Source: Escherichia coli | GTDB lineage: Bacteria; Pseudomonadota; Gammaproteobacteria; Enterobacterales; Enterobacteriaceae | Reading direction: 5' to 3' (one strand) | DNA length: 64,000 nucleotides | NCBI RefSeq assembly: GCF_013315695.1 | Contig: NZ_CP054353.1 | Translations under genes and position numbers: made by a program | The notes under the pieces: model-generated | Told to the model about the DNA's origin: nothing | Database searches by the model: none | The model's input: the letters and a program-made list of their open reading frames with translations, nothing else | Shown: piece by piece, positions 44,461 through 61,950 of the stretch | How positions within the stretch are numbered: position 1 is the first letter of the stretch | Layout of the letters: each line of letters begins with the position of its first letter

Positions 44461-44498
44461 CGAATATTAACTAGTCACTGTAAATTGCAGTACGATAA

Positions 44499-44526
44499 TG
44501 GCTTCCAGCACTGGAAGCCATTTTGC
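44499..44526 (+). terminator. intrinsic terminator after metE
   Basis: TGGCTTCCAG-CA-CTGGAAGCCA hairpin followed by TTTTGCT. Confidence 0.75.
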
Positions 44527-44553: not shown

Positions 44554-45450
44554 TCAGGAACAGAAAATTAATTGCGGATTTCTTAAATATTCTATGCACC
44601 ACTGACAGGCTTTGCCCATACCATCGGAACGAGCGGCAAGAAATAACTTGGTGGCGTGTTTATGTTCGCGCATTGGCTTTTTAAGCAATTTACCGCTGTT
44701 CAATAACGGCAATGCCAGATGATGTGGAATATAACCAATACCGACGTTTTGTTCTATTAAGGCGATTGCCGTAGCGAAGTCAGGAACAAAAATGGGTTTT
44801 TGTCCTTCCAACAACCAGGCTTGCATCGGGGGGAAGTTAACGGAGGTATCGCGGATACAAACCGCTGGATAATGACGCAATTCACTGTTTTCTAATGGAT
44901 GCCGCTTCGCTGCCAGTGGGTGGAGTGGGCTGACGACAAAATCCCATTCCATTTGTCCGACCGGTTCGCTAATGATGCCTTCACTGCTTGGCACTGCATG
45001 AGGAGCACCGTAGACCAGATCGGCACGCTTACTGTACAGCGCATCCCAGCAGCCGTTGTATACCTCAAGATCTACCGTCAGTGTTGTTGATGTGAATTGC
45101 CGTTCAAAATCTCGAATAAATGCCACCAGCAAATCACCAGGAATAATATTGTTCACCGCAATTGTCAGTTCACGCTCAATACCATCGTGAATCAGCACTG
45201 TGTTGCGCTTTAATGCTTCCAGGTCGCCAAGAATAGTTTTGCTATGTTCGATGAAGTAACTTCCCGCTGGCGATAATTCAATATAGCGTCCCTTACGAAT
45301 GAACAGTTCAACGCCCAGGCTCTCTTCCGCTTTCTTGATGGTGTAACTGATAGCGGAAGGGACTTTATTTAACTGCTCGGCTGCGGTGGTAATGCTCTGG
45401 TGTCTGGCGACCAGATGAATAACACGAAGCGTTTCGTCTGAGATGAACAT
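44554..45450 (-). CDS. LysR-family transcriptional regulator
   Basis: 298 aa; N-terminal wHTH (ITTAAEQLNKVPSAISYTIKKAEESLGVELF) and LysR substrate-binding domain. Confidence 0.8.
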   Translation of the reverse strand: MFISDETLRVIHLVARHQSITTAAEQLNKVPSAISYTIKKAEESLGVELFIRKGRYIELSPAGSYFIEHSKTILGDLEALKRNTVLIHDGIERELTIAVNNIIPGDLLVAFIRDFERQFTSTTLTVDLEVYNGCWDALYSKRADLVYGAPHAVPSSEGIISEPVGQMEWDFVVSPLHPLAAKRHPLENSELRHYPAVCIRDTSVNFPPMQAWLLEGQKPIFVPDFATAIALIEQNVGIGYIPHHLALPLLNSGKLLKKPMREHKHATKLFLAARSDGMGKACQWCIEYLRNPQLIFCS

Positions 45451-45527
45451 AAGGCTCCCTGGTCAGTGGTAAAGTGGCTGAATCTCTCCAGATTCAGCCG
45501 TAATCATTGCCTGAGTATACCCAGGAA

Positions 45528-46751
45528 TTAGCGGTGTTGACTTGCCTGACTGAGAATCGCATACGCGATACATGCCACCAGAATCGAGTCTACCGAAGGG
45601 ATCGTCGTCAGGGTGAATAAGCCTTTTACGGTCATAAAGCCAACCGCTGCGCCTATGATCCATGCTGCGAATGTCAGCACTTTAATCTGTGACTCCTGGG
45701 CTAACACTGACTCTTGATAGCCATTACGGCGATAAAGGAAAAAGTCAGCGATATAAATTCCGGCAACGGGTGGCGTGGCGATACCCAGGAACAGCAGAAA
45801 CGGAATAAACCACGCCATAATATCCATACTGCCTACGATGGCGGAAAGGATACCCAGCGCCACGGTAATCTGCCATTTGGGAAAGCGGGTAAGCAGTGTG
45901 GAAACCACCAGCGTGCCCTGGAACATATTGCCCGCGTTACCGGTGACGCAGGCGAAAATCAACAACAGCGCCGCAGGCAGAACCGCACCGAATACCGCCA
46001 TCGCACCCAGTAAAGATCCCTGACCACTAATGGCGCTCGGCGTTGCACCCGCCCAGTAGAGCAGAGGGTAGGCAACCAGAAACGTCACGCCTGCGGCAAT
46101 CAGCGCATGTTTGCGGTTATGTACAAAACTACCGAAATCAGGCAGTGTGGCAACCAGCACAATAATGGTGCCAACAACGGTGGAAACGGCGACACCTGTA
46201 TTCATCTCCACAATCGCCGCTGGTACTGCCACTTCGGTATGGGTTGCCACATAGAGGATGTAACACAGCACCAGCGCGATAACCGGCACGGCAACCTGGG
46301 CAATTTTTCCCAGAACGGCAAAGCCAAATGCCGTAGAGGCGACAAAAATGACACAGCCAGCCGCCACTAACAGTGCCAGTGGAACTTCCAGTCCATGTTG
46401 AGCCAGTAAGTCATGTACCGAATGACCAAACATATTGGCGGTAACGGCAATCCAGCCGAACAGACTTATCGCCATCAAAATGTTAATGGCGATGGCCCCT
46501 TTTTCGCCAAACGAATATTTCACAATGCCATACGTTGGTAGGCGGGCTTTTTCTCCCACGCTAATGGTGATGGCTGAAAGTAAGGTCAGAATGACGCCGC
46601 CTAACAATACGACGCTAATTAAACTGCCGCTGGAAAGTTGATTGCCGAGGCTTGAGGATGACAACAGCACAGGTGTGACGGCAATACCCAGCAAAATCAT
46701 GGCAATACGCAATCCTGATGCCGTATTCAGATTCTCTTCTTTTTTACGCAT
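45528..46751 (-). CDS. NCS1-family (CodB-like cytosine/nucleobase) permease
   Basis: 407 aa polytopic; resembles CodB architecture (…VGEKARLPTYGIVKYSFGEKGA…). Confidence 0.7.
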   Translation of the reverse strand: MRKKEENLNTASGLRIAMILLGIAVTPVLLSSSSLGNQLSSGSLISVVLLGGVILTLLSAITISVGEKARLPTYGIVKYSFGEKGAIAINILMAISLFGWIAVTANMFGHSVHDLLAQHGLEVPLALLVAAGCVIFVASTAFGFAVLGKIAQVAVPVIALVLCYILYVATHTEVAVPAAIVEMNTGVAVSTVVGTIIVLVATLPDFGSFVHNRKHALIAAGVTFLVAYPLLYWAGATPSAISGQGSLLGAMAVFGAVLPAALLLIFACVTGNAGNMFQGTLVVSTLLTRFPKWQITVALGILSAIVGSMDIMAWFIPFLLFLGIATPPVAGIYIADFFLYRRNGYQESVLAQESQIKVLTFAAWIIGAAVGFMTVKGLFTLTTIPSVDSILVACIAYAILSQASQHR

Positions 46752-46776
46752 AGTATGTTCCCTTTATAAATGCGCG

Positions 46777-47166
46777 TTACACAGTATGAAAATGCCCGGT
46801 GTATTTGCGCCAGCTGCCCAGTTCTGTAATTTCCCGTTGGCCTTCGGTCAGCCAGTTTTCTGCCAGTACGCCCAGCACTTCGCTACCATCGGCAAGTTTG
46901 ATTTTGCCAATTGCCAGCCCAGCGGGTTCGCTCATTAACAGAGCGGCAAAACTGGCCAGCGGTAATTGCCAAATTTCTACGTCGACGTGTGTTCCTCCTT
47001 CATTCACGCGAATCATTCCCGGATGGCGATCATTAATACTCCACAACCGGTAATGGGCGTCAGTTCGGTCTTCACGGACAAAAATACCGCCCGCTTTTTG
47101 CATATTTGGGTTGAGTTCCAGGCCGCGCATCAGCGTTCCGTTAACGGCTAAAAGCGTTGTAGTCAT
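46777..47166 (-). CDS. gamma-glutamylcyclotransferase-like (AIG2 / allophanate hydrolase C-terminal domain-like) protein
   Basis: 129 aa; N-terminal LLAVNGTLMRG motif typical of GGCT fold. Confidence 0.5.
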   Translation of the reverse strand: MTTTLLAVNGTLMRGLELNPNMQKAGGIFVREDRTDAHYRLWSINDRHPGMIRVNEGGTHVDVEIWQLPLASFAALLMSEPAGLAIGKIKLADGSEVLGVLAENWLTEGQREITELGSWRKYTGHFHTV

Positions 47167-47182
47167 TGTGTTCTCCAGAGAA

Positions 47183-48139
47183 TTAAAGGGTTATCCATGT
47201 ACCGCTCTGATGCGCCAGGGCTGCTTTTATGGTTTGCGGTGAAGTAATCAGGCCGCTGGCCTGTTTGCCTTGTTGCTGGCTGGCATTGATGAAATCAACA
47301 ATGGCTTCCACTTTGGGTTGCATACTGCCGACACCAAACTGACCTTCCCGCAACAGCGTTTGCGCTTCGGCAACGCTGATAGCGTCGAGCCACTGTTGTT
47401 GTGGTGTACCAAAGTTAATCGCCACTTTTTCTACACCGGTGGGGATCACCAGCAGATCTGCGCCTAACTGACTGGCGAGCAGCGCGGAGGCCAGATCTTT
47501 ATCGATCACGGCTTCCACACCTTTCAGTTGTTGCCCGTCTCGCACCACCGGAATACCGCCGCCGCCGCAGGCAATAACCAGATATCCCTGGCGCACCAGG
47601 TGAGCGATGGTGTCGTGCTCAATAATTTCCAGTGGTGCAGGAGAGGGAACTGTACGCCGCCAACCACGCCCGGCGTCCTCCATCAGCGTCCAGCCGAGTT
47701 GTTGTTGGCGTTGTTGGGCCGTTGCTTCATCGAGAAACGCGCCAATTGGTTTACTGGGGCTGGCGAAAGCATCGTCATGTGGGCTGACTCGCGTTTGTGT
47801 CACCAGGGCAATTACCGGTTTGTTTATGCCACGGCGAGCCAATTCGTTATGCAGTGCTTTCTGGAACATGTAGCCAATTGCACCTTGTGTATCACCCACG
47901 GCGTAATCAAGTGGAACCGGAGAAACTTCGTTACTGGCGAGTTCAGAGCGGCGCAGAATAAAGCCCACCTGCGGGCCATTACCGTGGGTTAGTACCAGGT
48001 CCCATCCGGCTTCAACCATATCAACGATATGCTGCACGCTTTCCATCACTGCAACATATTGATCGGGAATACTATTGCGTTGCTCGTCCTGAATGAGCGC
48101 ATTGCCGCCAACCGCGACGACAGCCAGTGGCTTAACCAT
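47183..48139 (-). CDS. carbamate kinase-like protein
   Basis: 318 aa from MVKPLAVVAVGGNAL...; amino-acid kinase family; start overlaps upstream stop (ATGGTTAA). Confidence 0.8.
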   Translation of the reverse strand: MVKPLAVVAVGGNALIQDEQRNSIPDQYVAVMESVQHIVDMVEAGWDLVLTHGNGPQVGFILRRSELASNEVSPVPLDYAVGDTQGAIGYMFQKALHNELARRGINKPVIALVTQTRVSPHDDAFASPSKPIGAFLDEATAQQRQQQLGWTLMEDAGRGWRRTVPSPAPLEIIEHDTIAHLVRQGYLVIACGGGGIPVVRDGQQLKGVEAVIDKDLASALLASQLGADLLVIPTGVEKVAINFGTPQQQWLDAISVAEAQTLLREGQFGVGSMQPKVEAIVDFINASQQQGKQASGLITSPQTIKAALAHQSGTWITL

Positions 48140-49556
48140 GATGGTTCTCCTTTGCGACGATCTCCGCCAGTGCACGTACAGCGGCGACAAAACAGGCCAT
48201 CGGCGCAGTGGTGATCCCGGCACCAATTTGCCCGACCCCCGCTTGTTTGTGGGCGATACCCGTATTGATGACCGGTAAAATGCCGCGATCGGTCACTTTA
48301 CGCGCATCAATCCCTGCTGCGGTGGGGGCAAAATTGAGGGCTGGAAGTGTAAATGCGGGGTTACCGCCGAGGGTGATGGCTTGCATCCGACGGCTGTTAT
48401 TGGTGGCATCGGCAGGGGTGCCTCCCACAAATTTGACGATCGCCGGAGACGACGCCATCGCGAAGCCACCCACACCTGCGGTTTCAGTAATTGCGCTATC
48501 ACCCAGGTCAGCAGCAGCGTCGTCAACGCCAAATCCGGGGAAGAACAGACCTTCAACGGCATTGGCAGGAGCCTGGAACCAGCGATCGCCAGTACCGGAA
48601 ATCCGAATACCAAAATTCACCCCGTTACGCGCCATCACCGTAACCATTGAACTGAACGGTACATTGGCGGCGGCATCCATCATTGCTTTACAGGCGGCCA
48701 TCGACAGATTGAGGAAGAAGTGATCGTTACCGGTGATAAATGCCACGACGCGCTGGATATGTTCCTGTGGAAGAGAGCAGGCCAGCAATGCCGGGAGCAG
48801 GCGCTTAATCAGCAAACCGGTAGCGGCAGCATTGCGGTTATGAACTTCATCCCCCATATGCAGCGCCTGCGCCATTAATGGCTTGAGTTCCAGCTCGCCG
48901 TGTTGTGCGATTGCTGCTTTCATTGCCGGCGCCAGTTCATCGCGCATCCAGGCCAGACGATTGAGAACTTCATCGTTATTGGCGCCAAAACGGAGAACCT
49001 TACCCAGACCTTCATTGAAATTGCTAAAAGTACGATGGCCGTTGGTTTTGTTTTCTACCACCCATAACGGCATCGACGGGCTGATGATGCCTGCCATTGG
49101 GCCAACCGCGTGATAATGATGACAAGGGGCAAGGTCGATTTCGCCTGCGTTTATTTGGTTTTCAGCGTCTTGCTGGCTGGTGGCCCAACCTTCGTACAGC
49201 ATGGCACCAATAATCGCCCCTTTTACCGGACCACACATCTCTTCCCAGGCAATCGGCGGGCCAGAGTGCAAAATACGTTTTTGTTCAGCCATTGCTGGAA
49301 TGGCCTCTTTAGCGAGCATGACATCCACCAGCACGGGCTGTGCTTCGAGATAACGTGTCATGGCGATTTGGTTGGCATTTTCTACCAGGGGATGACGTAG
49401 CAACGATGCCAGATCCAATCCAGCGTCAATATCGCCTTGTGCTGGTGGCTGCCAGTTGAGTGCAATTGCGCTTCCCCCGGCATGTTGAATATTGTCAGCA
49501 AAACTGTGTAGTCCCGCGTTCACGACCTTCAAAGGCTGATTAAATAAGGTATTCAT
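48132..49556 (-). CDS. DUF1116 protein (YlbE/YahG-like)
   Basis: 474 aa from MNTLFNQPLKVVNAG...; ATGA start/stop overlap with upstream FdrA-like gene. Confidence 0.75.
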   Translation of the reverse strand: MNTLFNQPLKVVNAGLHSFADNIQHAGGSAIALNWQPPAQGDIDAGLDLASLLRHPLVENANQIAMTRYLEAQPVLVDVMLAKEAIPAMAEQKRILHSGPPIAWEEMCGPVKGAIIGAMLYEGWATSQQDAENQINAGEIDLAPCHHYHAVGPMAGIISPSMPLWVVENKTNGHRTFSNFNEGLGKVLRFGANNDEVLNRLAWMRDELAPAMKAAIAQHGELELKPLMAQALHMGDEVHNRNAAATGLLIKRLLPALLACSLPQEHIQRVVAFITGNDHFFLNLSMAACKAMMDAAANVPFSSMVTVMARNGVNFGIRISGTGDRWFQAPANAVEGLFFPGFGVDDAAADLGDSAITETAGVGGFAMASSPAIVKFVGGTPADATNNSRRMQAITLGGNPAFTLPALNFAPTAAGIDARKVTDRGILPVINTGIAHKQAGVGQIGAGITTAPMACFVAAVRALAEIVAKENHHG

Positions 49557-51112
49557 GCGTTTAGCCCCTTTTTCTGCAACTGAGTCTGTGCAACGGTGCT
49601 GGCCCATAACGCCGCCTGTGCATTGCTGCTGGCGATGATGACCCCTGCATTTTGTAGTGCGCTTATCTGCTGACTGCGTATTTGCGGATCAGCTTCCGTT
49701 CCGCAAACGTGCGCAATCAGCAACGGTGCGTTATTCATGTCGATGTGTGAAAGTTGGTCCAGTAATTCGCTGGCAGGCGTCGTGGAAGCGCCATAACCAA
49801 GTACCAGGTCGAATAACACGACGGCAGTGTGTGAGTCGTTGAGTTCGTTGAGCAGACGTTGATTGCGCAGAGTCGGGTCGATCATTGGATGCGGTTTGCC
49901 ACGGGTGAAATCATCGTCGCCCATATCGATCAACGTGTGATCTTCGCTTTGCCAGATATTTGCCAGAGCACGATTACCCGCAACTGGCGTATTGGAGGCT
50001 GCGATGAATCCCTTTTGTTGGCAGATAAGTTGCGCTTCGTAGCAGAAGGTTCCTCCGGCGAAAACACCGCGTATCGCCTGGCGATGGGCTGGCAGGCGCT
50101 GGCAGGCGTTTTGTAACATTGTGAGATCGTCGCAGGAAATTTCGGTCTCGATAGTCGGAAGTGGTTGATCATTCAGTAACGCCACGGCGATATTTGCGGC
50201 GCTGGCAAGTGTGGTGGCCGCGGTGATATTGGGACGTGCCAGATCATGCGGATTCGCACCGAGGAAATTCACCACCACGGGTTTTCCACAAGCCTCGGCA
50301 CGCTCCAGAATAGTCCGGGCAACGATCGGTGAAGGCGGTTTTGAAATAAGCACAATCACGCGAGTTTCATCGTCTTGCGCCAGCGCATCTAAAGCGAAGA
50401 GCATCGATATTCCACCAATCTCTTCACTGAGATCATGTCCGCCTGTTCCCAACGCCTGAGAAATACCCGCTCCGAGCTGGTCGATTCGGCAAGTCACTTC
50501 CTGTAACCCGGTGCCTGACGCGCCAATAACACCAATTGCTCCGCGTTTCACCACATTAGCGAAGCCTAACGGAATGCCGTTAACAATGGCGGTTCCACAG
50601 TCAGGTCCCATTACGATGCGCTGACGTTCTCGGGCAAGCGTTTTGATGGATTTTTCCTGCACGATACTGACGTTATCGCTGAACATCATCACGTTCATTC
50701 CGAGGTTTAACGCTTTAATTGCTTCGGCGGCGGCGTAGTCTCCCGGTACAGAAATGAGTGCCAGGTTGGCTTCGGGCTCGGCTTCCAGTGCCATTTCCAG
50801 GCTGACCTTTTCCGGTGATTTAATGCCACTATCCGTTTCATCATCGGGTTTGCTGGTCAGACGTTGCTGGGCCAGTACCAGTGCTTCATTGCAAATATCT
50901 TCTTCACCCATGACTGCAATCACTAAATCATTGGGACTGGCGTTGATTTCGTTACCCAGACCCGCATCGCGCAATTGTTCGAGATTATTGGGCGTTCCCA
51001 TGACGACCGAGGCCTGTTGAATACCGGGCAACTTGCTGATTTGCGCGGAAATCTGCATCAGAGAAACTGAGTCCTGATAAAGATTACTGAAAACTTTATA
51101 TTTAACTTTCAT
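49553..51112 (-). CDS. FdrA-like protein (succinyl-CoA synthetase alpha-like CoA-binding/ligase domains)
   Basis: 519 aa; FdrA/YahF-like. Confidence 0.75.
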   Translation of the reverse strand: MKVKYKVFSNLYQDSVSLMQISAQISKLPGIQQASVVMGTPNNLEQLRDAGLGNEINASPNDLVIAVMGEEDICNEALVLAQQRLTSKPDDETDSGIKSPEKVSLEMALEAEPEANLALISVPGDYAAAEAIKALNLGMNVMMFSDNVSIVQEKSIKTLARERQRIVMGPDCGTAIVNGIPLGFANVVKRGAIGVIGASGTGLQEVTCRIDQLGAGISQALGTGGHDLSEEIGGISMLFALDALAQDDETRVIVLISKPPSPIVARTILERAEACGKPVVVNFLGANPHDLARPNITAATTLASAANIAVALLNDQPLPTIETEISCDDLTMLQNACQRLPAHRQAIRGVFAGGTFCYEAQLICQQKGFIAASNTPVAGNRALANIWQSEDHTLIDMGDDDFTRGKPHPMIDPTLRNQRLLNELNDSHTAVVLFDLVLGYGASTTPASELLDQLSHIDMNNAPLLIAHVCGTEADPQIRSQQISALQNAGVIIASSNAQAALWASTVAQTQLQKKGLNA

Positions 51113-51206
51113 GCTGTTACGCCTGTTTCATTCCGCCCGATAGCAAAATTCGGGCAAAGTATCCCCGTGTAGCCCCATAAACGGGCTACGGGAGAAAAGG
51201 TTGAAA

Positions 51207-52067
51207 TCAATTCATGGTGTTCAGGGTTCGAAAGCCATGCAGCATTCCTGCAAGGCAATCTACTCCTGACGTTGCGCCAAATTGCATGACCTGTTCTGCA
51301 CAGGATGCGATTGTCATTGCCGATGCGCTCCCAACCAGTTGTGCGAGTAACTGGCAAATCGGTTCTGAAAAATGTCCCTGAAGCGCACGCTCCAGATAAT
51401 GACGACTGATATCCGTGGTGTTGTGCGCATGTTGATCAATTGCCTGCTGCAACCGGTATTGATGATCGGCAAGTGGTGCAGGGAGTTGCCATAACCAGAG
51501 CGCTGCCAGATAGCCCAACAAATAGTCATCTCCATCGGGCGTTAAGCCTTTACCAAAGCCGATCAGTTGTGGCACCTGGCGTTCCAGCGCATCTGGATGC
51601 TCCATAATCGCTAATCCCTGGTGCGTGAGACTATCCGGCAGGTGCAATGTGCTTTGAACGTTATGTTCCAGACAAAATAAAAGCCGTTGCGATGCCATCG
51701 TTGGGTAGTGCTGGAAAACCAAAGGGAATGCCTCAAGTGTCAGCATTCCCCCCACAAATGGCGACTGCCAGAGCGTTGCGTTATCGAGCGCCACACAAAA
51801 TCGAGGTGTCCGCAGTAAGCCTGGGGTTAACTGAATGGGATCTGAATGGGCAATCTCTCTTCGCCAGTCCCAACATTCAGGTAGCCAGACTCTGGCAGCA
51901 TCAGGGAGATTCAGATACGTTTGCGCACACAACAGAGTGATGAATGTTCCCGCGTCTGAATACAGATTTACCGCATGTTTAAAAGCGCTATGCAGACGTA
52001 AATCTTGCGTTTCATTCTGCGGGAAAATATATCCCAACGACGATGCGCAAAGCGTAACCTGTACCAT
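51207..52067 (-). CDS. DUF2877 protein (YlbF/YahE-like)
   Basis: 286 aa; co-occurs with DUF1116 and FdrA-like genes. Confidence 0.65.
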   Translation of the reverse strand: MVQVTLCASSLGYIFPQNETQDLRLHSAFKHAVNLYSDAGTFITLLCAQTYLNLPDAARVWLPECWDWRREIAHSDPIQLTPGLLRTPRFCVALDNATLWQSPFVGGMLTLEAFPLVFQHYPTMASQRLLFCLEHNVQSTLHLPDSLTHQGLAIMEHPDALERQVPQLIGFGKGLTPDGDDYLLGYLAALWLWQLPAPLADHQYRLQQAIDQHAHNTTDISRHYLERALQGHFSEPICQLLAQLVGSASAMTIASCAEQVMQFGATSGVDCLAGMLHGFRTLNTMN

Positions 52068-52072
52068 CGGCG

Positions 52073-52741
52073 TTAGCCTTCCAGACCTGCAATAATGGCT
52101 TTGGAATCAGTAACCCAACCGAAAATGGCACCTTGTGCTTTGATCATCTCGAGGGCGTATTTCTGGAATTCCGGGAAATAGGAGCCGACACAATCTTCCG
52201 GGATAATGCATTCATAGCCACGATCATTTGCTTCGCGCACGGTGGTGGTTACGCAAACTTCGGTTGTAACACCACAAACTATCAGCGTCTTGATACCGTG
52301 GTTTTGCAAAATCAGATGTAAGTCGGTTTGATAAAACGCGCCTTTGCCAGGCTTATCAATCACCGGTTCGCCTGCCACCGGGTACAGTTCAGGAATGATG
52401 TCATGACCTGCTTCACCTCTGACCAGAATGCGTCCCATCGGTCCTGGTTCACCAATAAAGGTTTTTCCGCCGCGCGTCAGTTTGGCTGGCGGGCAGTCGC
52501 TTAAGTCTGCACGATGGCCTTCACGAGTATGAATAACCATAATTCCTTTTTGACGTGCGGCTGCCAGCACCTCTGTACATGGTGCGATAGCCGTGCGTAC
52601 CAGTGAAACATCATTGCCCAGTGCCTCACCGAAGCCCCCTGCTTCGACAAAGTCACGCTGCATGTCGATCATGACCAGTGCAGTTGTGCGCGGATCAAAA
52701 GGTAATTCAAAGGGTTGAGCCTGAAAAATGGATTGCGTCAT
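52073..52741 (-). CDS. isochorismatase-family cysteine amidohydrolase (RutB / N-carbamoylsarcosine amidase-like)
   Basis: 222 aa; ALVMIDMQRDF and LIVCGVTTEVCV motifs of isochorismatase-like hydrolases. Confidence 0.8.
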   Translation of the reverse strand: MTQSIFQAQPFELPFDPRTTALVMIDMQRDFVEAGGFGEALGNDVSLVRTAIAPCTEVLAAARQKGIMVIHTREGHRADLSDCPPAKLTRGGKTFIGEPGPMGRILVRGEAGHDIIPELYPVAGEPVIDKPGKGAFYQTDLHLILQNHGIKTLIVCGVTTEVCVTTTVREANDRGYECIIPEDCVGSYFPEFQKYALEMIKAQGAIFGWVTDSKAIIAGLEG

Positions 52742-52997: not shown

Positions 52998-53807
52998 TTA
53001 CTTTTTAACACCATACTGTGTAAACCATTCCAACATTCGCTGCCAGCCGTCTTTCGCAGACTCGGCATGATAGCCCGGACGATAATCGGCGTTGAACGCA
53101 TGCCCGGCATCCGGGTACACGATAATCTCTGCTTTCGCGTTTGCTGCCCGCAGCGCCTGGCGCATCGTTTCAACGCTCTCTTGCGGAATGCTGTTATCCT
53201 GACCACCATATAAGCCGAGAACCGGCGCGTTAAGATCGGTTGCGATATCAACAGGTTGTTTCGGTGAATTCAGCGTCTTATCGCCGGTTAATTTGCCGTA
53301 CCATGCCACCGCTGCTTTCAGTTGTGGATTATGCGCGGCATACAGCCAGGTGATACGTCCACCCCAGCAGAATCCGGTGATCATTAAACGATGAACATCG
53401 CCGCCGTTGCGTGACGCCCAACTGGCGACATGATCGAGATCGGCCAGCACCTGCGAGTCAGGCACTTTTGCTACCAGACCGCTAAGCAGCGTAGGGATAT
53501 CGGCAAAATCATTCGGATCGCCTTCGCGGAAGTAAAGTTCAGGTGCGATAGCCAGATACCCCTCCAGCGCCAGACGGCGACAAATATCGCGGATATGTTC
53601 ATGCACGCCAAAAATTTCCTGCACTACAATGACCACTGGCAGTGGGCCATCGCTTTGCTTTGGTCTGGCATGGTAAGCAGGCATGTTATCCCCTTGTGAA
53701 GGGATAGAGGTGAAGCCCGCCACAATCGCGTCGTCCGGAGTCTGAACGATGGTCGAAGCGAGAGGCGATGCAGCAGGTGCAAATCCAGATTGTTGTGTTG
53801 TTGCCAT
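52998..53807 (-). CDS. ysgA: dienelactone hydrolase family protein
   Basis: ~269 aa from MATTQQSGFAPAASP... Confidence 0.85.
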   Translation of the reverse strand: MATTQQSGFAPAASPLASTIVQTPDDAIVAGFTSIPSQGDNMPAYHARPKQSDGPLPVVIVVQEIFGVHEHIRDICRRLALEGYLAIAPELYFREGDPNDFADIPTLLSGLVAKVPDSQVLADLDHVASWASRNGGDVHRLMITGFCWGGRITWLYAAHNPQLKAAVAWYGKLTGDKTLNSPKQPVDIATDLNAPVLGLYGGQDNSIPQESVETMRQALRAANAKAEIIVYPDAGHAFNADYRPGYHAESAKDGWQRMLEWFTQYGVKK

Positions 53808-54068
53808 GGTATTCTCCGTACCCTTATAAAAATGTTGCGCAATGTTAACTATAGTCAGCATGCAACAAATCACATTGCCTGAATCGGCTCATCTTTTATG
53901 CAGTCCTGCAGAATGAAGAGTGATTTATGTGATTTGCATCACTTTTGGCGGGTAAATTTATGCAACGCATTTTCGTCATGGTGATGAGTATCACGAAAAA
54001 ATGTTAAACCCTTCGGTAAAGTGTCTTTTTGCTTCTTCTGACTAAACCGATTTACAGAGGAGTTGTAT

Positions 54069-54833
54069 ATGTCCAAGTCTGATGTTTTTCATCTCGGCCT
54101 CACTAAAAACGATTTACAAGGGGCTACGCTTGCCATCGTCCCTGGCGACCCGGATCGTGTGGAAAAGATCGCCGCGCTGATGGATAAGCCGGTTAAGCTG
54201 GCATCTCACCGCGAATTCACCACCTGGCGTGCAGAGCTGGATGGTAAACCTGTTATCGTCTGCTCTACCGGTATCGGCGGCCCGTCTACCTCTATTGCTG
54301 TTGAAGAGCTGGCACAGCTGGGCATTCGCACCTTCCTGCGTATCGGCACAACGGGCGCTATTCAGCCGCATATTAATGTGGGTGATGTCCTGGTTACCAC
54401 GGCGTCTGTTCGTCTGGATGGTGCGAGCCTGCACTTCGCACCGCTGGAATTCCCGGCTGTCGCTGATTTCGAATGTACGACTGCGCTGGTTGAAGCTGCG
54501 AAATCCATTGGCGCGACGACTCACGTTGGCGTGACAGCTTCTTCTGATACCTTCTACCCTGGTCAGGAACGTTACGATACTTACTCTGGTCGCGTAGTCC
54601 GTCACTTTAAAGGTTCTATGGAAGAGTGGCAGGCGATGGGCGTAATGAACTATGAAATGGAATCTGCAACCCTGCTGACCATGTGTGCAAGTCAGGGCCT
54701 GCGTGCGGGTATGGTGGCGGGCGTTATCGTTAACCGCACCCAGCAAGAGATCCCGAATGCTGAGACGATGAAACAAACCGAGAGCCATGCGGTGAAAATC
54801 GTGGTGGAAGCGGCGCGTCGTCTGCTGAAATAA
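54069..54833 (+). CDS. udp: uridine phosphorylase
   Basis: 253 aa [28 protein letters not shown]... Confidence 0.95.
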
Positions 54834-54837
54834 AAAA

Positions 54838-54859
54838 CGCTCCCCAACTTCGGGGAGCG
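54838..54859. terminator. hairpin between convergent udp and tctA-like gene (possible bidirectional terminator)
   Basis: CGCTCCCC-AACTT-CGGGGAGCG flanked by A-run upstream and T-rich downstream. Confidence 0.6.
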
Positions 54860-54866
54860 ATATCAG

Positions 54867-56357
54867 TTATTGACGCCGTAAACGCATTATTTTGCGGATT
54901 ATTGGCGTCAGTAGCGTAAAGGCTGCCAGAGTCAGCAATGCCAGAGTGATCGGTCGGGTATACAGAAAGTCGAGTGAACCACCAGAAAGCGACAGCGCAC
55001 GGCGAAAATTACTTTCCGCCATTGGCCCCATAATCAATGCCAGCACTACGGGTGATGCCGGATATCCTCCTTTCTGCATGAAATAGCCCACCACGCCTGC
55101 AATCAGCATAATGCCAACATCAAACAGGCTATTGTTCAACGCATAAGTCCCGACCACACAAAGTGCGAGGATCATCGGTGTGAGAATATTGCCGGGGATC
55201 TTCACCACGTTACCGATGACTTTCAAAGAGAGCAGTCCAAGAACTAGCAGCATGAAGTAACAAAAGATCATGCCGACAAACAGTGTATAAACCATATCGC
55301 CGTGGTCGGTAAACATCAGCGGGCCTGGTTGCATTCCCTGTAACGTTAACGCGCCCAGCATGATGGCGGTTACCGCATCGCCAGGGATCCCCAGCGTCAG
55401 CATAGGTAACAATGCGCCACCGGTGCAGCCATTCGCGCCTGCCTCACAGGAGGCCACAGCTTTAATTTCACCCTTACCAAAGTTTTCTGGTGTCTTACTG
55501 AAACGACGAGTTTCGTTATAGGCAACAAAAGCTGCAATATCCGCCCCCGCACCGGGGATCATGCCGATAAAAACCCCTAATCCTGATGAGCGCAAAATGG
55601 TTAATGCAATGCGGCGTAGTGTTTGCCAGGGCAGTAACAGACTGCCGATAGCCACCTTCGCCCCCTGACGAATTTGCTGGTTTTGCTCCATAGAGCGGAA
55701 TGCATCTGAAGCAGCAAATAAACCAATCATCACCGGGATAAATGGCACATTCATCAGCTCCACAAATCCACCTGTAAACCGTGGAAAACCGCCCATTGGA
55801 TCAAGGCCTATCGTTGCGATCAGCAATCCGCCAACCCCGGCAATCAGCCCTTTAATCAGTGACTCACCGGAAATACTGGCAATAATGCTCAGTCCGAAGG
55901 TTGCCAGGGCGAAGGACTCCGAGGCACTAAATTTCAGCGCCCAACTGGCAAGTACCGGAGAGAGAAACATCAGCACGATAATGCTGAGCGTTCCGCCACT
56001 AAAGGAAGAGAACGTGGCGGCACTCAATGCCAGCCCTGCTTTTCCCTGTTTCGTCAGCTCATAACCATCAATAGCGGTGGCTGCGGCGGCAGGCGTTCCG
56101 GGAATTTTGAGCAAAATTGCGGTGATAGAACCACCGTAGACGCCACCAAAAAAGACGCCGCAAATCATCAACAAGCCAGAAACAGGCTCCATGCCGTAGG
56201 TGAAAGGCAGCAAAATCACCACACCCATGGTCGCTGTCAGACCAGGCAAAGCGCCAATCACAATACCCAGCATCACCCCAAAAGTGGCAAACAGCAGCGC
56301 CTGAGGATTATTGAGTAATGTCGAAAAACCCTGAGTTAAAAGTTCACTTTCAAACAT
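54867..56357 (-). CDS. tripartite tricarboxylate transporter large permease TctA-like
   Basis: 496 aa polytopic, TctA family. Confidence 0.8.
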   Translation of the reverse strand: MFESELLTQGFSTLLNNPQALLFATFGVMLGIVIGALPGLTATMGVVILLPFTYGMEPVSGLLMICGVFFGGVYGGSITAILLKIPGTPAAAATAIDGYELTKQGKAGLALSAATFSSFSGGTLSIIVLMFLSPVLASWALKFSASESFALATFGLSIIASISGESLIKGLIAGVGGLLIATIGLDPMGGFPRFTGGFVELMNVPFIPVMIGLFAASDAFRSMEQNQQIRQGAKVAIGSLLLPWQTLRRIALTILRSSGLGVFIGMIPGAGADIAAFVAYNETRRFSKTPENFGKGEIKAVASCEAGANGCTGGALLPMLTLGIPGDAVTAIMLGALTLQGMQPGPLMFTDHGDMVYTLFVGMIFCYFMLLVLGLLSLKVIGNVVKIPGNILTPMILALCVVGTYALNNSLFDVGIMLIAGVVGYFMQKGGYPASPVVLALIMGPMAESNFRRALSLSGGSLDFLYTRPITLALLTLAAFTLLTPIIRKIMRLRRQ

Positions 56358-56369
56358 TGCTGGCCCCTG

Positions 56370-56879
56370 TTATTCGAAAAATGTGCCGACAGGCAATGGC
56401 ACCTGTAACGCTTCGACAAACAGCAACCAGAGGATTGCCGTTAACAGCAGCGCAATACCCGGTGTGAGTACCCATCGCCTGTAGCCCATCAACGTCATAA
56501 TGACGATGAGGAAAACAGGAGTAGTAATGAGATAACCGCAGTAGCTCATCGCCACAATATAAAATGCGGTTGCCGCAATTCCTGTTGCCGTTTTCCTGAA
56601 TGCCGGTTTTTCCTGTGCGTTGGCGCAAGAGGCTGGTTTTGCCTGCAAAAGATCGCGTATCACCAGCAAGACAGCGAGCACAATCAGGGCACAGGCATAG
56701 AAGGTAGGGAAGGCACTTGCACCGGGATCCGTTTCAATGGCAGTTGCTGGAAAATCAGCGGCATTAATCATCACCGCGCCAGCAACCACACAAAGTAACA
56801 GCGCCACCACCATCGTTGATGAAAGGCGCTTGCGGTGCGGTACGGCGAGTTGAGCAACAGACTGTTTTGTGTTCATCAA
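56370..56879 (-). CDS. TctB-like small permease subunit
   Basis: 169 aa, ~4 TM, between TctC- and TctA-like genes. Confidence 0.7.
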   Translation of the reverse strand: MMNTKQSVAQLAVPHRKRLSSTMVVALLLCVVAGAVMINAADFPATAIETDPGASAFPTFYACALIVLAVLLVIRDLLQAKPASCANAQEKPAFRKTATGIAATAFYIVAMSYCGYLITTPVFLIVIMTLMGYRRWVLTPGIALLLTAILWLLFVEALQVPLPVGTFFE

Positions 56880-56892
56880 CCGTACCTCAGGT

Positions 56893-57867
56893 TTATTTTT
56901 TCAGGCCCAGGCGAGTCAGCAACTCGTCAAAGTACTTTTCCTGTTCGCTGATTTGGGTCTGGAAGCTGGCAGCGTCAAGCCATGCATAGTTGAGATTCAA
57001 CTTTTGCAGTGCATCCTGGAATGCAGGCTCTTCAGCCGTCTCTTTTGCTGCCTTTGCCAGAACATCCACCACATCCTGCGGCGTTTTTTGCGACACAATC
57101 AGGCCGCGCCAGGTGCCGATGGAGAGATCAACGCCTTTCTCTTTTAACGTCGGGACGTCAGGCATGGTTTTCATTCGCTCATCCGCCATCACTACCAGTG
57201 TCTTCAGCTTGCCGCCATTCACATGGTTGATAACTTCTCCTGGGCTTACGGAAACCGCTTCAATGTGCCCGCCTAACAGGCCTGTAATGGCAGGGGCTGC
57301 GCCGTCATACGGGACATGAGAAAACTTTGCGCCCGTTTTGTCTTCCAGTGCAGCTGCCGCCAGATGCCAGATAGCTCCGGTGCCTGAGTTACCAATGCGT
57401 ACTTTTCCGGGATTCGCTTTGGCGTAAGTCATAAATTCTTCATAGCTATTCCACGGCGCATCGGCACGGACTGTGATAGCAGCCGGATCCGCATTCAGAC
57501 GGGCAATGGGTTTAAAGTCGCTGGTTTTAAAACGCACCATTCCGAGGCTGGGAAGGGTGGTCAGTTCAACTGTGCCTAAACCAATTTTGTAACCGCCAGG
57601 GCGGGCAGCGGCGATTTCACTCAGGCCGATAGCACCGCCTCCGCCAGGTTTATTGATAACCCCGATGCTGACGGGTAAATGGTTTTTGGCGGCATCAGCA
57701 AAGGCACGGGCAACCAGATCCGTACCGCCTCCGGCAGCGTAGGGAACGACTAACTCGATCTGTTTGGTTGGGTAGGAGGCTGCCTGTACAGGCGCAATGC
57801 TGAGGGCAGCGCCTGCAAGAAGTACCATTGCAGCCATTTTTTTCGGTAAGGTAAGATGTTTTATCAT
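56893..57867 (-). CDS. TctC/Bug-family periplasmic substrate-binding protein
   Basis: 324 aa with signal peptide. Confidence 0.8.
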   Translation of the reverse strand: MIKHLTLPKKMAAMVLLAGAALSIAPVQAASYPTKQIELVVPYAAGGGTDLVARAFADAAKNHLPVSIGVINKPGGGGAIGLSEIAAARPGGYKIGLGTVELTTLPSLGMVRFKTSDFKPIARLNADPAAITVRADAPWNSYEEFMTYAKANPGKVRIGNSGTGAIWHLAAAALEDKTGAKFSHVPYDGAAPAITGLLGGHIEAVSVSPGEVINHVNGGKLKTLVVMADERMKTMPDVPTLKEKGVDLSIGTWRGLIVSQKTPQDVVDVLAKAAKETAEEPAFQDALQKLNLNYAWLDAASFQTQISEQEKYFDELLTRLGLKK

Positions 57868-57891
57868 TGCTTTTATATCCTTATTTATCAG

Positions 57892-58521
57892 TTAGTTGCT
57901 ATTTAAATTGTTCCATGCGTTCATAAACAGTACTGCATTTTCATAGACTTGCTCTGGCGTCATGCCGGGGTGATATAGCGCAGAACCGAGGCCAAAGCCG
58001 TTTGCGCCGTGGCTCAGATAACGCGCCATGGTTTCCGGTGTGATACCGCCAACCGGTAACATCGGAACGGATTGTGGAATAACCGCACGCCAGGCTTTGG
58101 TAACTTCTGGCGTAATTTGTTCAGCCGGGAACAGCTTGATGGCATTAGCACCATGTTCAATGGCAGCAAAGGCTTCGGTGGGCGTGGCGACGCCAGGCGC
58201 ACAATACATACCCAGCGCACGGGCGCGACGGATCACCGCAGTATCGCAATGCGGCATCACGATAATCTGGCCCCCAGCCTCTTTAACCGCAACCACCTGC
58301 TCTACCGAAAGCACAGTTCCGGCTCCGACCAGGCAGTCCTTAGGCAGGGCGTCGCGCAGTAAACTGATACTTTGCAACGCCTCCGGCGAGTTCATAGGAA
58401 TCTCAATCAGGCGGAATCCGGCGGCGTACAGTTTTTCACCGATGGCGACAATCTCATCCGGTTTCACGCCGCGTAAAATGGCGACTAACCCGGTTTTTTG
58501 CAAAAGCGTCTTAAATGGCAT
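57892..58521 (-). CDS. 2-dehydro-3-deoxy-6-phosphogalactonate/KDPG aldolase (DgoA/Eda family)
   Basis: ~209 aa from MPFKTLLQKTGLVAILRGVKPDE...; clear similarity to DgoA. Confidence 0.8.
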   Translation of the reverse strand: MPFKTLLQKTGLVAILRGVKPDEIVAIGEKLYAAGFRLIEIPMNSPEALQSISLLRDALPKDCLVGAGTVLSVEQVVAVKEAGGQIIVMPHCDTAVIRRARALGMYCAPGVATPTEAFAAIEHGANAIKLFPAEQITPEVTKAWRAVIPQSVPMLPVGGITPETMARYLSHGANGFGLGSALYHPGMTPEQVYENAVLFMNAWNNLNSN

Positions 58522-59515
58522 GGGTACATTCCCTGGCGTTGGTGGACAGTAACCCGGCAGCGTGGGCGATTCGCCATAATCCCTGTTCAGTGGCATTAGG
58601 AATGGCGTGTATCTGTCTGTCGGGAAAAACGTGGCTGAATGCTTGTGAATAGCGGCTGTTCAGATTTGCGCTACCGATTAAAGCGATCGGTGTTGTGGCG
58701 GGTAAATCACGTAGCAAACTGGATGCCAGACCACATAATTCATGGCCTATCAGTAATCCGGAAAGGTAATCCCCCTGCGAGGACGACGTAAGATTACTGG
58801 TCAGCAGGCGCGAACGGGTCGAAAACAGCGTCGATAATAATCCGGTCTGATGATGCTCTTGTGCTGCTGTCAGCCCGTGGGTGAAGGCATCCCAGTGCGG
58901 TTCATCTCCAGGATGCATGGTGGCACCGAGAATCGAATGGCGGGATAAAACATCAAATAACTCGCCCGTCATAAAGGTTCGGAAATCGGTAATGGTGTTG
59001 TTTTCAACTACTGCCCATTTCGCATGTGTGCCGGGTAAGCCTATCAGCACTGGCATACCCTGATGGATCGCGTTTTGCAGGGCCGGTTCCATCGAGATAG
59101 CACCGAAGATTTGTGTCTCTTCGCCACGCATCACTTCGGGCATTTCACCTTCTTTAATCACGCCAGGAATGATGTGCAGCATTGTCTGCTGCTGGTGGAT
59201 AACAGGCGTCAACTGCTTCGCCAGACCCTCGAGAGTGACCGGGCAAGGTAAATAAGCTGCTGGTTGCCACCCTTGCGCACTGCCGAGCATGCCGCAAGCC
59301 AGTACCGGGCATGGGGTTTGTGCCAGCCAGTCGCCGCAGACACGTAAAAACGTATCGTGGAAAGCGTCCTCACGTGTTGCTGCCTGGGAGGGTAATTTCA
59401 TGATCCCCCAGGGGAATTCACGTTTTTCTTGTGGATTTGGTGATTCGTCAAAACGCCATGCCCGAAGCGATGACGTTCCCCAGTCCAGGGCAATAAATGA
59501 GGGTGCTCCCGGCAT
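58511..59515 (-). CDS. 2-dehydro-3-deoxygalactonokinase-like (DgoK family)
   Basis: 334 aa; ALDWGTSSLRAW N-terminus as in DgoK. Confidence 0.7.
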   Translation of the reverse strand: MPGAPSFIALDWGTSSLRAWRFDESPNPQEKREFPWGIMKLPSQAATREDAFHDTFLRVCGDWLAQTPCPVLACGMLGSAQGWQPAAYLPCPVTLEGLAKQLTPVIHQQQTMLHIIPGVIKEGEMPEVMRGEETQIFGAISMEPALQNAIHQGMPVLIGLPGTHAKWAVVENNTITDFRTFMTGELFDVLSRHSILGATMHPGDEPHWDAFTHGLTAAQEHHQTGLLSTLFSTRSRLLTSNLTSSSQGDYLSGLLIGHELCGLASSLLRDLPATTPIALIGSANLNSRYSQAFSHVFPDRQIHAIPNATEQGLWRIAHAAGLLSTNARECTHAI

Positions 59516-59538
59516 TAGTCGTTTCCTTTAATCATGGT

Positions 59539-60306
59539 TTATTTATCTTTGCGGACGTGCTTACCCCAGCCCAGTTCAGCGGATATCTCTTCTGCACAGG
59601 ATTTGACGTAAGGTGCCAGTTCTTCCAGACGCGCCAGCGACATATACGTGGTGGTACTGGCGACAGAAATAGCCGCCACAATTTCATCCCGGGCGTTGTA
59701 AACCGGCGCTGCAACGCAACGGATAGTCGGCTCGTTCTCTTCCAGATCAAAAGCAAAACCACTGGTGGCATAACGACGCATGTTCTGAATAAATGCGCCC
59801 AGTTTTGTTTCATCACCACAGGTCTTAAACAGCGTGCGCCACTCTTCTTCTGTTCGGTTGAGGATCAATGCCTTGCCGATGCCGGTGATTGCCAGTGGCA
59901 TGCGATGGCCTGGGCGTGAGCGCATTTCCAGCCCGCGCTGACTGTTGATCTTCTCCAGATACAGCACTTCGTCGCCTTCAACGATCCCCAGATGCACGGT
60001 GTCCAGGGTGTAACGGGCAAGGCGTTGCAAAACGGGCTGGGCAATTTCGTACAGCGAGGTGCTTTCCAGTGCTCTGGCACCGAATTCGATCAGTTTGGCA
60101 CCCAGTTGGTAGCCCTGCGTTGGGACATGGCGCAGGTAGCGTTGTTCCACCAGAACGGTGACTAAACGATGGGTTGTGCTCCGGGTCGTGCCGGTGAACT
60201 CGCCGATACTTTTTAGGTCATGGCAGCCGTTATAAACAGCATTAAGAACCGCCAGTCCACGTAATAACGTTTGTGCGCCTGCGGTGGTTGAAGAGGTTTC
60301 TGCCAT
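59539..60306 (-). CDS. IclR-family transcriptional regulator
   Basis: 255 aa from MAETSSTTAGAQTLLRGLAVLNAV...; AGGAG RBS 6 nt before ATG. Confidence 0.8.
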   Translation of the reverse strand: MAETSSTTAGAQTLLRGLAVLNAVYNGCHDLKSIGEFTGTTRSTTHRLVTVLVEQRYLRHVPTQGYQLGAKLIEFGARALESTSLYEIAQPVLQRLARYTLDTVHLGIVEGDEVLYLEKINSQRGLEMRSRPGHRMPLAITGIGKALILNRTEEEWRTLFKTCGDETKLGAFIQNMRRYATSGFAFDLEENEPTIRCVAAPVYNARDEIVAAISVASTTTYMSLARLEELAPYVKSCAEEISAELGWGKHVRKDK

Positions 60307-60366
60307 ACGTTTCTCCTGATGATATTGCTGAAGTGTTCCACATAATGACGTGGGGAAAAGGTGATA

Positions 60367-60404
60367 TATCCCACAATATAAACTCCATCTCATATTGTGG
60401 GATA
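60367..60404. promoter_or_regulatory. candidate operator: 13-bp perfect inverted repeat with 12-bp spacer
   Basis: TATCCCACAATAT-N12-ATATTGTGGGATA located 61-98 bp upstream of the IclR start. Confidence 0.4.
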
Positions 60405-60522
60405 AAATAATGAAAATTAACGATCGTTTTGCGTAGCGCCTCGCAGGAAACTTCTTTCAAACTGGACGTTTGTACAGCACAATTCTATTTTGTGCGGGTA
60501 AGTTGTTGCGTCAGGAGGCGTT

Positions 60523-61950
60523 GTGGATTTCTCAATCATGGTTTACGCAGTTATTGCGTTGGTGGGTGTGGCAATTGGCTGGCTGTTTGCCAGTTATCAA
60601 CATGCGCAGCAAAAAGCCGAGCAATTAGCTGAACGTGAAGAGATGGTCGCGGAGTTAAGCGCGGCAAAACAACAAATTACCCAAAGCGAGCACTGGCGCG
60701 CTGAGTGCGAGTTACTCAATAACGAAGTGCGCAGCCTGCAAAGTATTAACACCTCGCTGGAGGCCGATCTGCGTGAAGTAACCACGCGGATGGAAGCTGC
60801 ACAGCAACATGCTGACGATAAAATTCGCCAGATGATTAACAGCGAGCAGCGCCTCAGTGAGCAGTTTGAAAACCTCGCCAACCGTATTTTTGAGCACAGC
60901 AATCGCCGGGTTGATGAGCAAAACCGTCAGAGCCTGAACAGCCTGTTGTCGCCGCTACGTGAACAACTGGACGGTTTCCGCCGTCAGGTCCAGGACAGCT
61001 TTGGTAAAGAAGCCCAGGAACGTCATACCCTGACTCACGAAATCCGCAACCTCCAGCAACTCAACGCCCAGATGGCCCAGGAAGCGATCAACCTGACGCG
61101 TGCGCTGAAAGGCGACAATAAAACCCAGGGCAACTGGGGCGAGGTAGTATTGACGCGGGTGCTGGAGGCTTCCGGTCTGCGTGAAGGGTATGAATATGAA
61201 ACCCAGGTCAGCATCGAAAATGACGCCCGCTCGCGGATGCAGCCGGATGTCATCGTGCGGTTGCCGCAGGGAAAAGATGTGGTGATCGACGCCAAAATGA
61301 CGCTGGTCGCCTATGAACGTTATTTCAACGCTGAAGATGACTACACCCGCGAAAGCGCGCTACAGGAACATATCGCGTCGGTGCGTAACCATATCCGTTT
61401 GCTGGGACGCAAAGATTATCAACAGCTGCCGGGGCTGCGAACCCTGGATTACGTTCTGATGTTTATTCCCGTTGAACCCGCTTTTTTACTGGCGCTTGAC
61501 CGCCAGCCGGAGCTGATCACCGAAGCGTTGAAAAACAATATCATGCTGGTTAGCCCGACTACGCTGCTGGTGGCGCTGCGCACTATCGCCAACCTGTGGC
61601 GTTATGAGCATCAAAGCCGCAACGCCCAGCAAATCGCCGATCGTGCCAGCAAGCTGTACGACAAGATGCGTTTGTTCATCGATGACATGTCCGCGATTGG
61701 TCAAAGTCTCGACAAAGCGCAGGATAACTACCGCCAGGCAATGAAAAAACTCTCTTCAGGTCGCGGAAATGTGCTGGCGCAGGCAGAAGCGTTTCGCGGT
61801 TTAGGGGTAGAAATTAAACGCGAGATTAATCCGGATTTGGCTGAACAGGCGGTGAGCCAGGATGAAGAGTATCGACTGCGGTCGGTTCCGGAGCAGCCGA
61901 ATGATGAAGCTTATCAACGCGATGATGAATATAATCAGCAGTCGCGCTAG
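60523..61950 (+). CDS. rmuC: DNA recombination protein RmuC
   Basis: 475 aa; GTG start; coiled-coil N-terminal half. Confidence 0.9.
   Translation: MDFSIMVYAVIALVGVAIGWLFASYQHAQQKAEQLAEREEMVAELSAAKQQITQSEHWRAECELLNNEVRSLQSINTSLEADLREVTTRMEAAQQHADDKIRQMINSEQRLSEQFENLANRIFEHSNRRVDEQNRQSLNSLLSPLREQLDGFRRQVQDSFGKEAQERHTLTHEIRNLQQLNAQMAQEAINLTRALKGDNKTQGNWGEVVLTRVLEASGLREGYEYETQVSIENDARSRMQPDVIVRLPQGKDVVIDAKMTLVAYERYFNAEDDYTRESALQEHIASVRNHIRLLGRKDYQQLPGLRTLDYVLMFIPVEPAFLLALDRQPELITEALKNNIMLVSPTTLLVALRTIANLWRYEHQSRNAQQIADRASKLYDKMRLFIDDMSAIGQSLDKAQDNYRQAMKKLSSGRGNVLAQAEAFRGLGVEIKREINPDLAEQAVSQDEEYRLRSVPEQPNDEAYQRDDEYNQQSR

Follow-up and report, generated by a model that had tools for sequence, protein, structure and literature searches.

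A predicted two-box operator of an IclR-family regulator in the udp-rmuC islet of Escherichia coli

A perfect 13-nt inverted repeat in 64 kb of Escherichia coli DNA (the whole stretch analyzed, here called the window) is very likely the operator of the IclR-family regulator encoded in the same islet, built of two tandem boxes, as judged from comparison of sequences, and probably repressive. An earlier note on this DNA had suggested an operator of the adjacent IclR-family regulator in preference to a terminator, and the occurrence of the same element with orthologous regulators across gamma- and beta-proteobacteria argues in favor of this suggestion. Most likely, the predicted operator is an ordinary kind of site in an uncharacterized, widespread accessory islet. 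Since the site follows the standard pattern of the family, the understanding of regulation is left unchanged by it.

RESULTS

An inverted repeat unique in the window

The repeat lies at 60367–60404, in the 216-bp gap between the minus-strand regulator gene (59539–60306) and the plus-strand gene rmuC (60523–61950). Its left arm, TATCCCACAATAT (60367–60379), has an exact reverse complement in the right arm, ATATTGTGGGATA (60392–60404); each arm is 13 nt long, complementarity is 100%, and the 12-nt spacer reads AAACTCCATCTC. The perfect 13-bp inverted repeat with 12-nt spacing noticed on first reading is borne out by this direct comparison of the arms, as is its placement about 80 bp from the regulator ATG: the center falls at 60385.5, 80 bp from the ATG (60306, minus strand). 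Extension of the arms is not possible, 60366 and 60405 both being A. We describe the whole element as a putative composite operator (13-nt inverted repeat, 12-nt spacer) with no strand assigned, single-copy and found in islet carriers only.

No second copy of TATCCCACAATAT was detected in the 64-kb window, even with 2 mismatches allowed. No other perfect inverted repeat in the 64 kb has arms of 13 nt or more and a loop of at most 30 nt, and none is longer; such a repeat appeared in none of 40 first-order Markov simulations of the window. Being unique in 64 kb and absent from 40 simulated windows, the repeat is more than chance. For inverted repeats of at least 11 nt, 6 were observed in the window versus 0.5 expected from the Markov simulations.

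Next in length among the perfect inverted repeats of the window is AATGGCTTCCAG (44497–44522, 2-nt loop), just past the end of metE, at the edge of a tkt1-type island. A minus-strand gene block at 44554–52741, between metE (42199–44460) and ysgA (52998–53873), is absent from the K-12-type genome. It corresponds by position to the tkt1 island, described as a 16-kb genomic island of extraintestinal pathogenic E. coli (PMC3349570), and points to a B2-type strain.

The udp-rmuC islet and its operon

The repeat belongs to an islet of about 5.6 kb (54828–60426), the junctions of which were set by comparison with a K-12-type genome. Relative to that genome the islet is an insertion between udp and rmuC, and K-12-type genomes lack it. 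It is carried by 1456 of 5426 complete E. coli genomes (27%), in one copy each, and known extraintestinal pathogenic strains are among the carriers, as are APEC O1 and BL21. One of the 1456 copies of the islet intergenic region is on a record classed as plasmid. The udp-rmuC islet has been named as a 5-kb, 6-ORF islet of unknown function (PMC3349570), and a literature search for experimental work on the regulator, on an IclR-type DgoR or on the islet returned only this bare mention.

On the minus strand the islet encodes a six-gene operon, iclR-dgoK-dgoA-tctCBA, divergent from rmuC. The repeat had been placed at the head of a udp-rmuC operon, and this was mistaken: the regulator gene, transcribed from the minus strand and away from rmuC, is the first of a six-gene operon of its own. 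The five genes after the regulator are on the same strand, with gaps of at most 24 bp or overlaps. They comprise a DgoK-like 2-dehydro-3-deoxygalactonokinase (58511–59515; Pfam DGOK, E = 2.7e-89, and RefSeq annotation), a DgoA-like 2-dehydro-3-deoxy-6-phosphogalactonate aldolase (57892–58521; NCBIfam NF006600, 320 bits versus a cut-off of 207) and a tripartite tricarboxylate-type transporter, made up of tctC (56893–57867; Pfam TctC, annotation and ORF), tctB (56370–56879) and tctA (54867–56357), the last two assigned by annotation and ORF. The islet thus holds a transporter, a kinase and an aldolase, and no gene for a dehydratase (dgoD), which suggests that a keto-deoxy acid is taken up as such or that the core dgoD gene supplies this step.

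An intrinsic terminator on the minus strand (54838–54859), a stem followed by TTTTTTATTT, closes the six-gene operon and adjoins the end of udp. At this end the islet has replaced the K-12 udp terminator (54828–54866 region) and altered the end of udp from CTGCTGTAA to CTGCTGAAATAA, with one extra lysine. After udp the sole remaining hairpin is the minus-strand terminator of tctA at 54838–54859, and the plus strand has no T-run there.

Reduced forms of the islet were also seen. In E. coli HS-02 (L085, 2784–4196) about 1.4 kb of it is left, in which no gene is annotated, and the udp gene is flagged as incomplete; a decayed operator region is still there, with deletions in the distal arm. Escherichia sp. 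E1V33 (L003, 5001–8534) has a short islet in which regulator-dgoK-dgoA is followed directly by udp, without tctCBA. In E. coli SCPM-O-B-8794 (L004) the regulator gene has an internal deletion, leaving a 217-aa product (P0005).

The regulator

The first gene of the operon (59539–60306, minus strand) encodes an IclR-family transcriptional regulator of 255 aa (WP_000852398.1), identified by Pfam and RefSeq. It combines an HTH domain (HTH_IclR, PF09339) with an effector domain (IclR_C, PF01614). Against the NCBIfam equivalogs it scored below the cut-off in every case, namely 142.7 versus 350 for BhcR, 129.7 versus 275 for KdgR, 93.7 versus 380 for IclR and 74.5 versus 406 for AllR. With all four scores under the cut-offs, a named identity as KdgR, IclR, AllR or BhcR was rejected; for KdgR in particular, 129.7 bits is so far under 275 that the islet regulator is not KdgR. 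No close solved structure of the regulator was found, the nearest being Thermotoga IclR, KdgR and TtgV. The recognition-helix stretch RSTTHRL is nearly invariant (S43, T44, H46, R47, L48) in 20 diverse orthologs, which fits a DNA motif common to orthologs.

Two tandem boxes within the repeat

The element can be read as two 15-bp boxes in tandem, of the type TCCCAcATAtaGGGA. Box 1, distal to the gene, is TCCCACAATATGAGA (60388–60402, minus strand); it has a strong outer half-site, TCCCA, and a weak inner one, TGAGA, and aligns with box 1 of Phytobacter, Klebsiella and Burkholderiaceae. Box 2, proximal, is GTTTATATTGTGGGA (60369–60383, minus strand), homologous to TTTTATATTATGGTA in Phytobacter and TCTTATAAATAGGGA in Klebsiella, with a strong outer half-site, TGGGA, and a degenerate inner one (GTTTA). 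The box centers are 89 bp (box 1) and 70 bp (box 2) from the ATG, 19 bp from each other. The pair reads as a 13-bp inverted repeat because the outer halves are well kept and the inner halves are degenerate.

A matrix built from non-Escherichia, non-Burkholderiaceae sites gave its best score in the 64-kb window, 16.6 bits, at 60388–60402, that is, at box 1. Taken alone the score of box 1 is marginal window-wide, as about 5% of simulated windows reach 16.2 bits somewhere. This best match falls in the single 216-bp gap where it was expected.

The geometry had been put forward as that of a dimeric regulator operator. This stands in so far as it favors an operator over a terminator, there being no T-run, but it does not hold for a single dimer, the arm centers being 25 bp apart. 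A single-dimer operator was rejected on this distance and on the orthologs, in which the arms are seen to be the outer portions of two separate 15-bp palindromes.

Comparative genomics of the IclR family has found 94 orthologous groups with tandem palindromic sites, the centers of which are mainly 19–21 nt apart (PMC8222616). In the same work such tandem palindromes were connected with tetramer binding in which the two dimers occupy the same face of the DNA, and site centers were mostly located 20–80 nt upstream of gene starts (PMC8222616). The distance between box centers, 19 nt in Escherichia and 20 nt in other clades, lies within the 18–22 nt used there for a two-box arrangement; relative to the 20–80 nt zone, the box center at 70 nt is inside and that at 89 nt just outside. 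With the same box type, 19-nt spacing and distances of 70 and 89 nt from the ATG, the site is thus a typical IclR-family operator by prediction.

The same element in other species

Orthologs of the regulator 52–96% identical to it were used to fetch 80 loci from other species, one genome per species. The regulator adjoins dgoK in all 80 loci, and dgoA too wherever the fetched DNA reaches; tctCBA is added in enterobacteria, and the Achromobacter and Bordetella loci have the regulator and dgoK-dgoA in divergent orientation. A two-box element with centers 20 bp apart is present upstream of the regulator in almost all of the 80 loci. Exact matches to TCCC-N7-GGGA precede the regulator in Phytobacter (TCCCACATATTGGGA), Klebsiella (TCCCATATATAGGGA) and Brenneria (TCCCTATATGTGGGA), as well as in seven Achromobacter loci and Bordetella hinzii (TCCCACATAyAGGGA), and are almost absent from the rest of those 10-kb loci. 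When the 10-kb loci were scanned with the matrix, the best match was in the regulator upstream region for most of them. The second, weaker box starts 20 bp from the first (19 bp in Escherichia), and the composite is found in every clade. Among 65 Burkholderiaceae species information content is 1.6 bits per position in the arms, 0.64 in the spacer and 0.2–0.5 in the flanks. The conservation pattern is that of a site for a sequence-specific protein, one that accompanies this regulator gene from genome to genome.

A different gene order was met in Citrobacter amalonaticus (L007), where no good box was found upstream of the regulator. In that locus a 62%-identical paralog or ortholog is placed after dgoK-dgoA-tctC-tctA, not before, and the expected site upstream of dgoK would fall at the edge of the fetched DNA. 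A similar 62% protein (P0013) is found in some E. coli.

A CRP-like site and the promoter region

Pattern matching also returned a candidate CRP-like site, TGTGGgatataTCACC (60360–60375, minus strand), which overlaps the proximal arm. Its core, TGTGG-N6-TCACC, agrees with TGTGA-N6-TCACA at 8 of 10 positions, and the relaxed pattern has 4 matches in the window versus 2.0 expected. A counterpart, TGTGC-N6-TCACC, is found at the equivalent position in Phytobacter and Klebsiella, where 10 bp more separate it from box 2; in Escherichia sp. E1V33 the N6 spacer alone differs. A second CRP-like core, TGTGATTTGCATCAC (53928–53942), was seen in the ysgA-udp gap, upstream of udp, a gene controlled by CRP and CytR.

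On the minus strand, no promoter was called by a sigma-70 consensus scan. By eye, weak -10 candidates can be picked out, none of them convincing: CATTAT (60342–60347), AACACT (60332–60337) and TATATT (60375–60380).

DISCUSSION

How the predicted operator might work

In the mechanism that we propose, the regulator would occupy one face of the DNA as a dimer of dimers, the box centers being about two helical turns apart. The operator, 62–96 bp upstream of the regulator ATG, would lie over or just upstream of the operon promoter, and through it the regulator would control its own synthesis and that of the five downstream genes (KDGal kinase, KDPGal aldolase and TctCBA). Repression may be relieved by a 2-keto-3-deoxy sugar acid (e.g. 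2-keto-3-deoxygalactonate), by D-galactonate or by a relative of these, and CRP may compete with the regulator at the overlapping CRP-like site. It is binding by this protein, the tetramer stoichiometry and the effector that we infer here; repression as the mode is carried over from the sugar-acid members of the family and appears somewhat favored.

The same cognate operator could instead serve an activator that acts upstream of a weak promoter and is stimulated by the sugar acid, and we regard this as unlikely. PobR, PcaU and PcaR are IclR-family members that activate, no good -35 element was found, and a transcription start near 60326 would put the operator at about -43 to -76, a position typical of activators. 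However, the sugar-acid members of the family, KdgR, IclR, AllR and YiaJ, are generally known as repressors, and the candidate CRP-like site would already supply an activator. The AT-rich cores of the boxes, moreover, hold -10-like hexamers (TATATT at 60375–60380), so the boxes may overlap the promoter, which counts against activation as well.

It is improbable that the functional site belongs to another factor, e.g. to CRP at TGTGG-N6-TCACC, with the long repeat being incidental. The 8 of 10 core positions, the overlap with the proximal arm and the counterparts in Phytobacter and Klebsiella speak for CRP, but its binding would account for the proximal arm only, and beta-proteobacteria without this CRP-like sequence also conserve the distal arm and the box motif. 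Since box 2 stands apart from the CRP-like site in Phytobacter and Klebsiella, the two are coexisting sites, not competing explanations. The 10-bp shift in Escherichia puts half-site TTGTGGGA on the left half of the CRP-like site. Competition between the regulator and CRP at the overlapping site might then form an anti-activation switch for an uncharacterized 2-keto-3-deoxy-galactonate-type salvage with a TTT transporter, a scheme that we find doubtful but worth naming.

An operator or another kind of element

We consider it very improbable that the repeat acts through a hairpin in RNA or DNA, be it as terminator, as attenuator or in processing or stability, instead of as a protein site, even though the folded stem is 13–16 bp long at -16 to -20 kcal/mol (z-scores -3.9 and -5.3). 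Variation within Escherichia, which concerns mostly the spacer or degenerate box positions, does not respect the pairing. A C-to-T change in the distal arm (TATCCCATAATAT) is found in 609 of the 1456 carriers together with a change in the spacer, while their proximal arm stays the same; Escherichia sp. E1V33 differs in the last two bases of the proximal arm only, and E. coli SCPM-O-B-8794 in one base of the distal arm only, both uncompensated. As these arm variants are uncompensated, the repeat is not maintained as a hairpin. The boxes of other genera are each self-palindromic, and the long-range pairing is lost there. Nor does either strand have a gene upstream of the repeat to terminate. A terminator as such was rejected: besides having no gene to terminate, the repeat has no T-run, drew no terminator call and contains 4 G-C pairs of 13. 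No family of Rfam 15 reached its threshold at the repeat, the best scores being 20.3 and 18.7 bits versus 67 and 69.

More remote still is the reading that insertion of the islet left the repeat behind, as a recombination site, the end of a mobile element or a REP-like repeat, or that it is a palindrome by chance. The repeat is only 22 bp inside the right islet junction, which could be expected of a remnant, but no matching copy was found at the left junction, and the same element accompanies orthologous regulators in other chromosomal contexts (Burkholderiaceae, Achromobacter, Bordetella). Searched with a 48-bp query centered on the repeat, every one of the 1456 carriers gave a single location, and the genomes without the islet gave no match. 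The earlier note had allowed for a widespread repetitive element unrelated to the operon; being single-copy in all 1456 carriers and absent elsewhere, the repeat is not of that kind. As for a chance palindrome, its expectation is about 0.

The predicted operator of the IclR-family regulator could be of practical use. It would give a direct handle on the inducer, and hence on the substrate of the transporter-kinase-aldolase set, it could help to test the part of the islet in gut or urinary-tract nutrition, and it could serve in a sugar-acid biosensor.

Comparison with known systems

Several characterized or predicted systems resemble this one in part. In E. coli K-12 the GntR-family regulator DgoR governs dgoRKADT and is autoregulated. 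As in the islet, that operon encodes a KDGal kinase and a KDPGal aldolase, with the regulator gene first; unlike in the islet, it includes dgoD and the transporter is DgoT, whereas the islet has no dgoD and a TTT transporter, and both the family of the regulator and the operator are unrelated. The gene combination of the islet is found in a predicted D-galactonate locus of Salinivirga fredricksonii HL-109, with an IclR-family regulator, dgoK and a TTT transporter, for which uptake of a sugar acid of galactonate type was predicted (PMC5507952); this likeness is one of gene content alone to a locus that is itself a prediction.

Within the IclR family, KdgR of E. coli and Dickeya represses the uptake and catabolism of 2-keto-3-deoxygluconate (kdgT, kdgK, eda). 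Like the islet regulator as proposed here, it has an AT-rich palindromic operator, and its targets are a transporter, a kinase for a keto-deoxy sugar acid and an aldolase; it was also the second-best NCBIfam match. The islet differs in the galacto type of its enzymes (DgoK, DgoA), its TTT transporter and the sequence of its box. The TtgV-operator complex (PDB 2XRO) and the general tetramer model of the family provide a structural parallel, TtgV being a detectable homolog: two dimers join as a tetramer on a long operator, about 35–42 bp in length and with two dyads. TtgV is, however, distant from the islet regulator (E = 4e-11), controls an efflux pump and has a different operator sequence.

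By its sites, the element can be compared with an IclR-family orthologous group of alpha-proteobacteria (AZC_2272/2273, Mnod_6621/6622, M446_4911/4912), for which Suvorova and Gelfand (2021, PMC8222616) predicted ATCCCAtATatTGGGAT sites. In Supplementary Table 2 of that work these sites are given in tandem at a distance of 20 nt, e.g. gTCCCAcAaTATGGGAT. The listed regulon of this group consists of enolase-superfamily and FabG-type genes, not dgoK, dgoA and tctCBA, and the E. coli boxes differ in their 19-nt spacing and in having two weak inner half-sites. In both cases, however, the box is nearly the same, two boxes stand about 20 nt apart with one strong and one degenerate, and the sites are placed upstream of or between genes of sugar-acid type.
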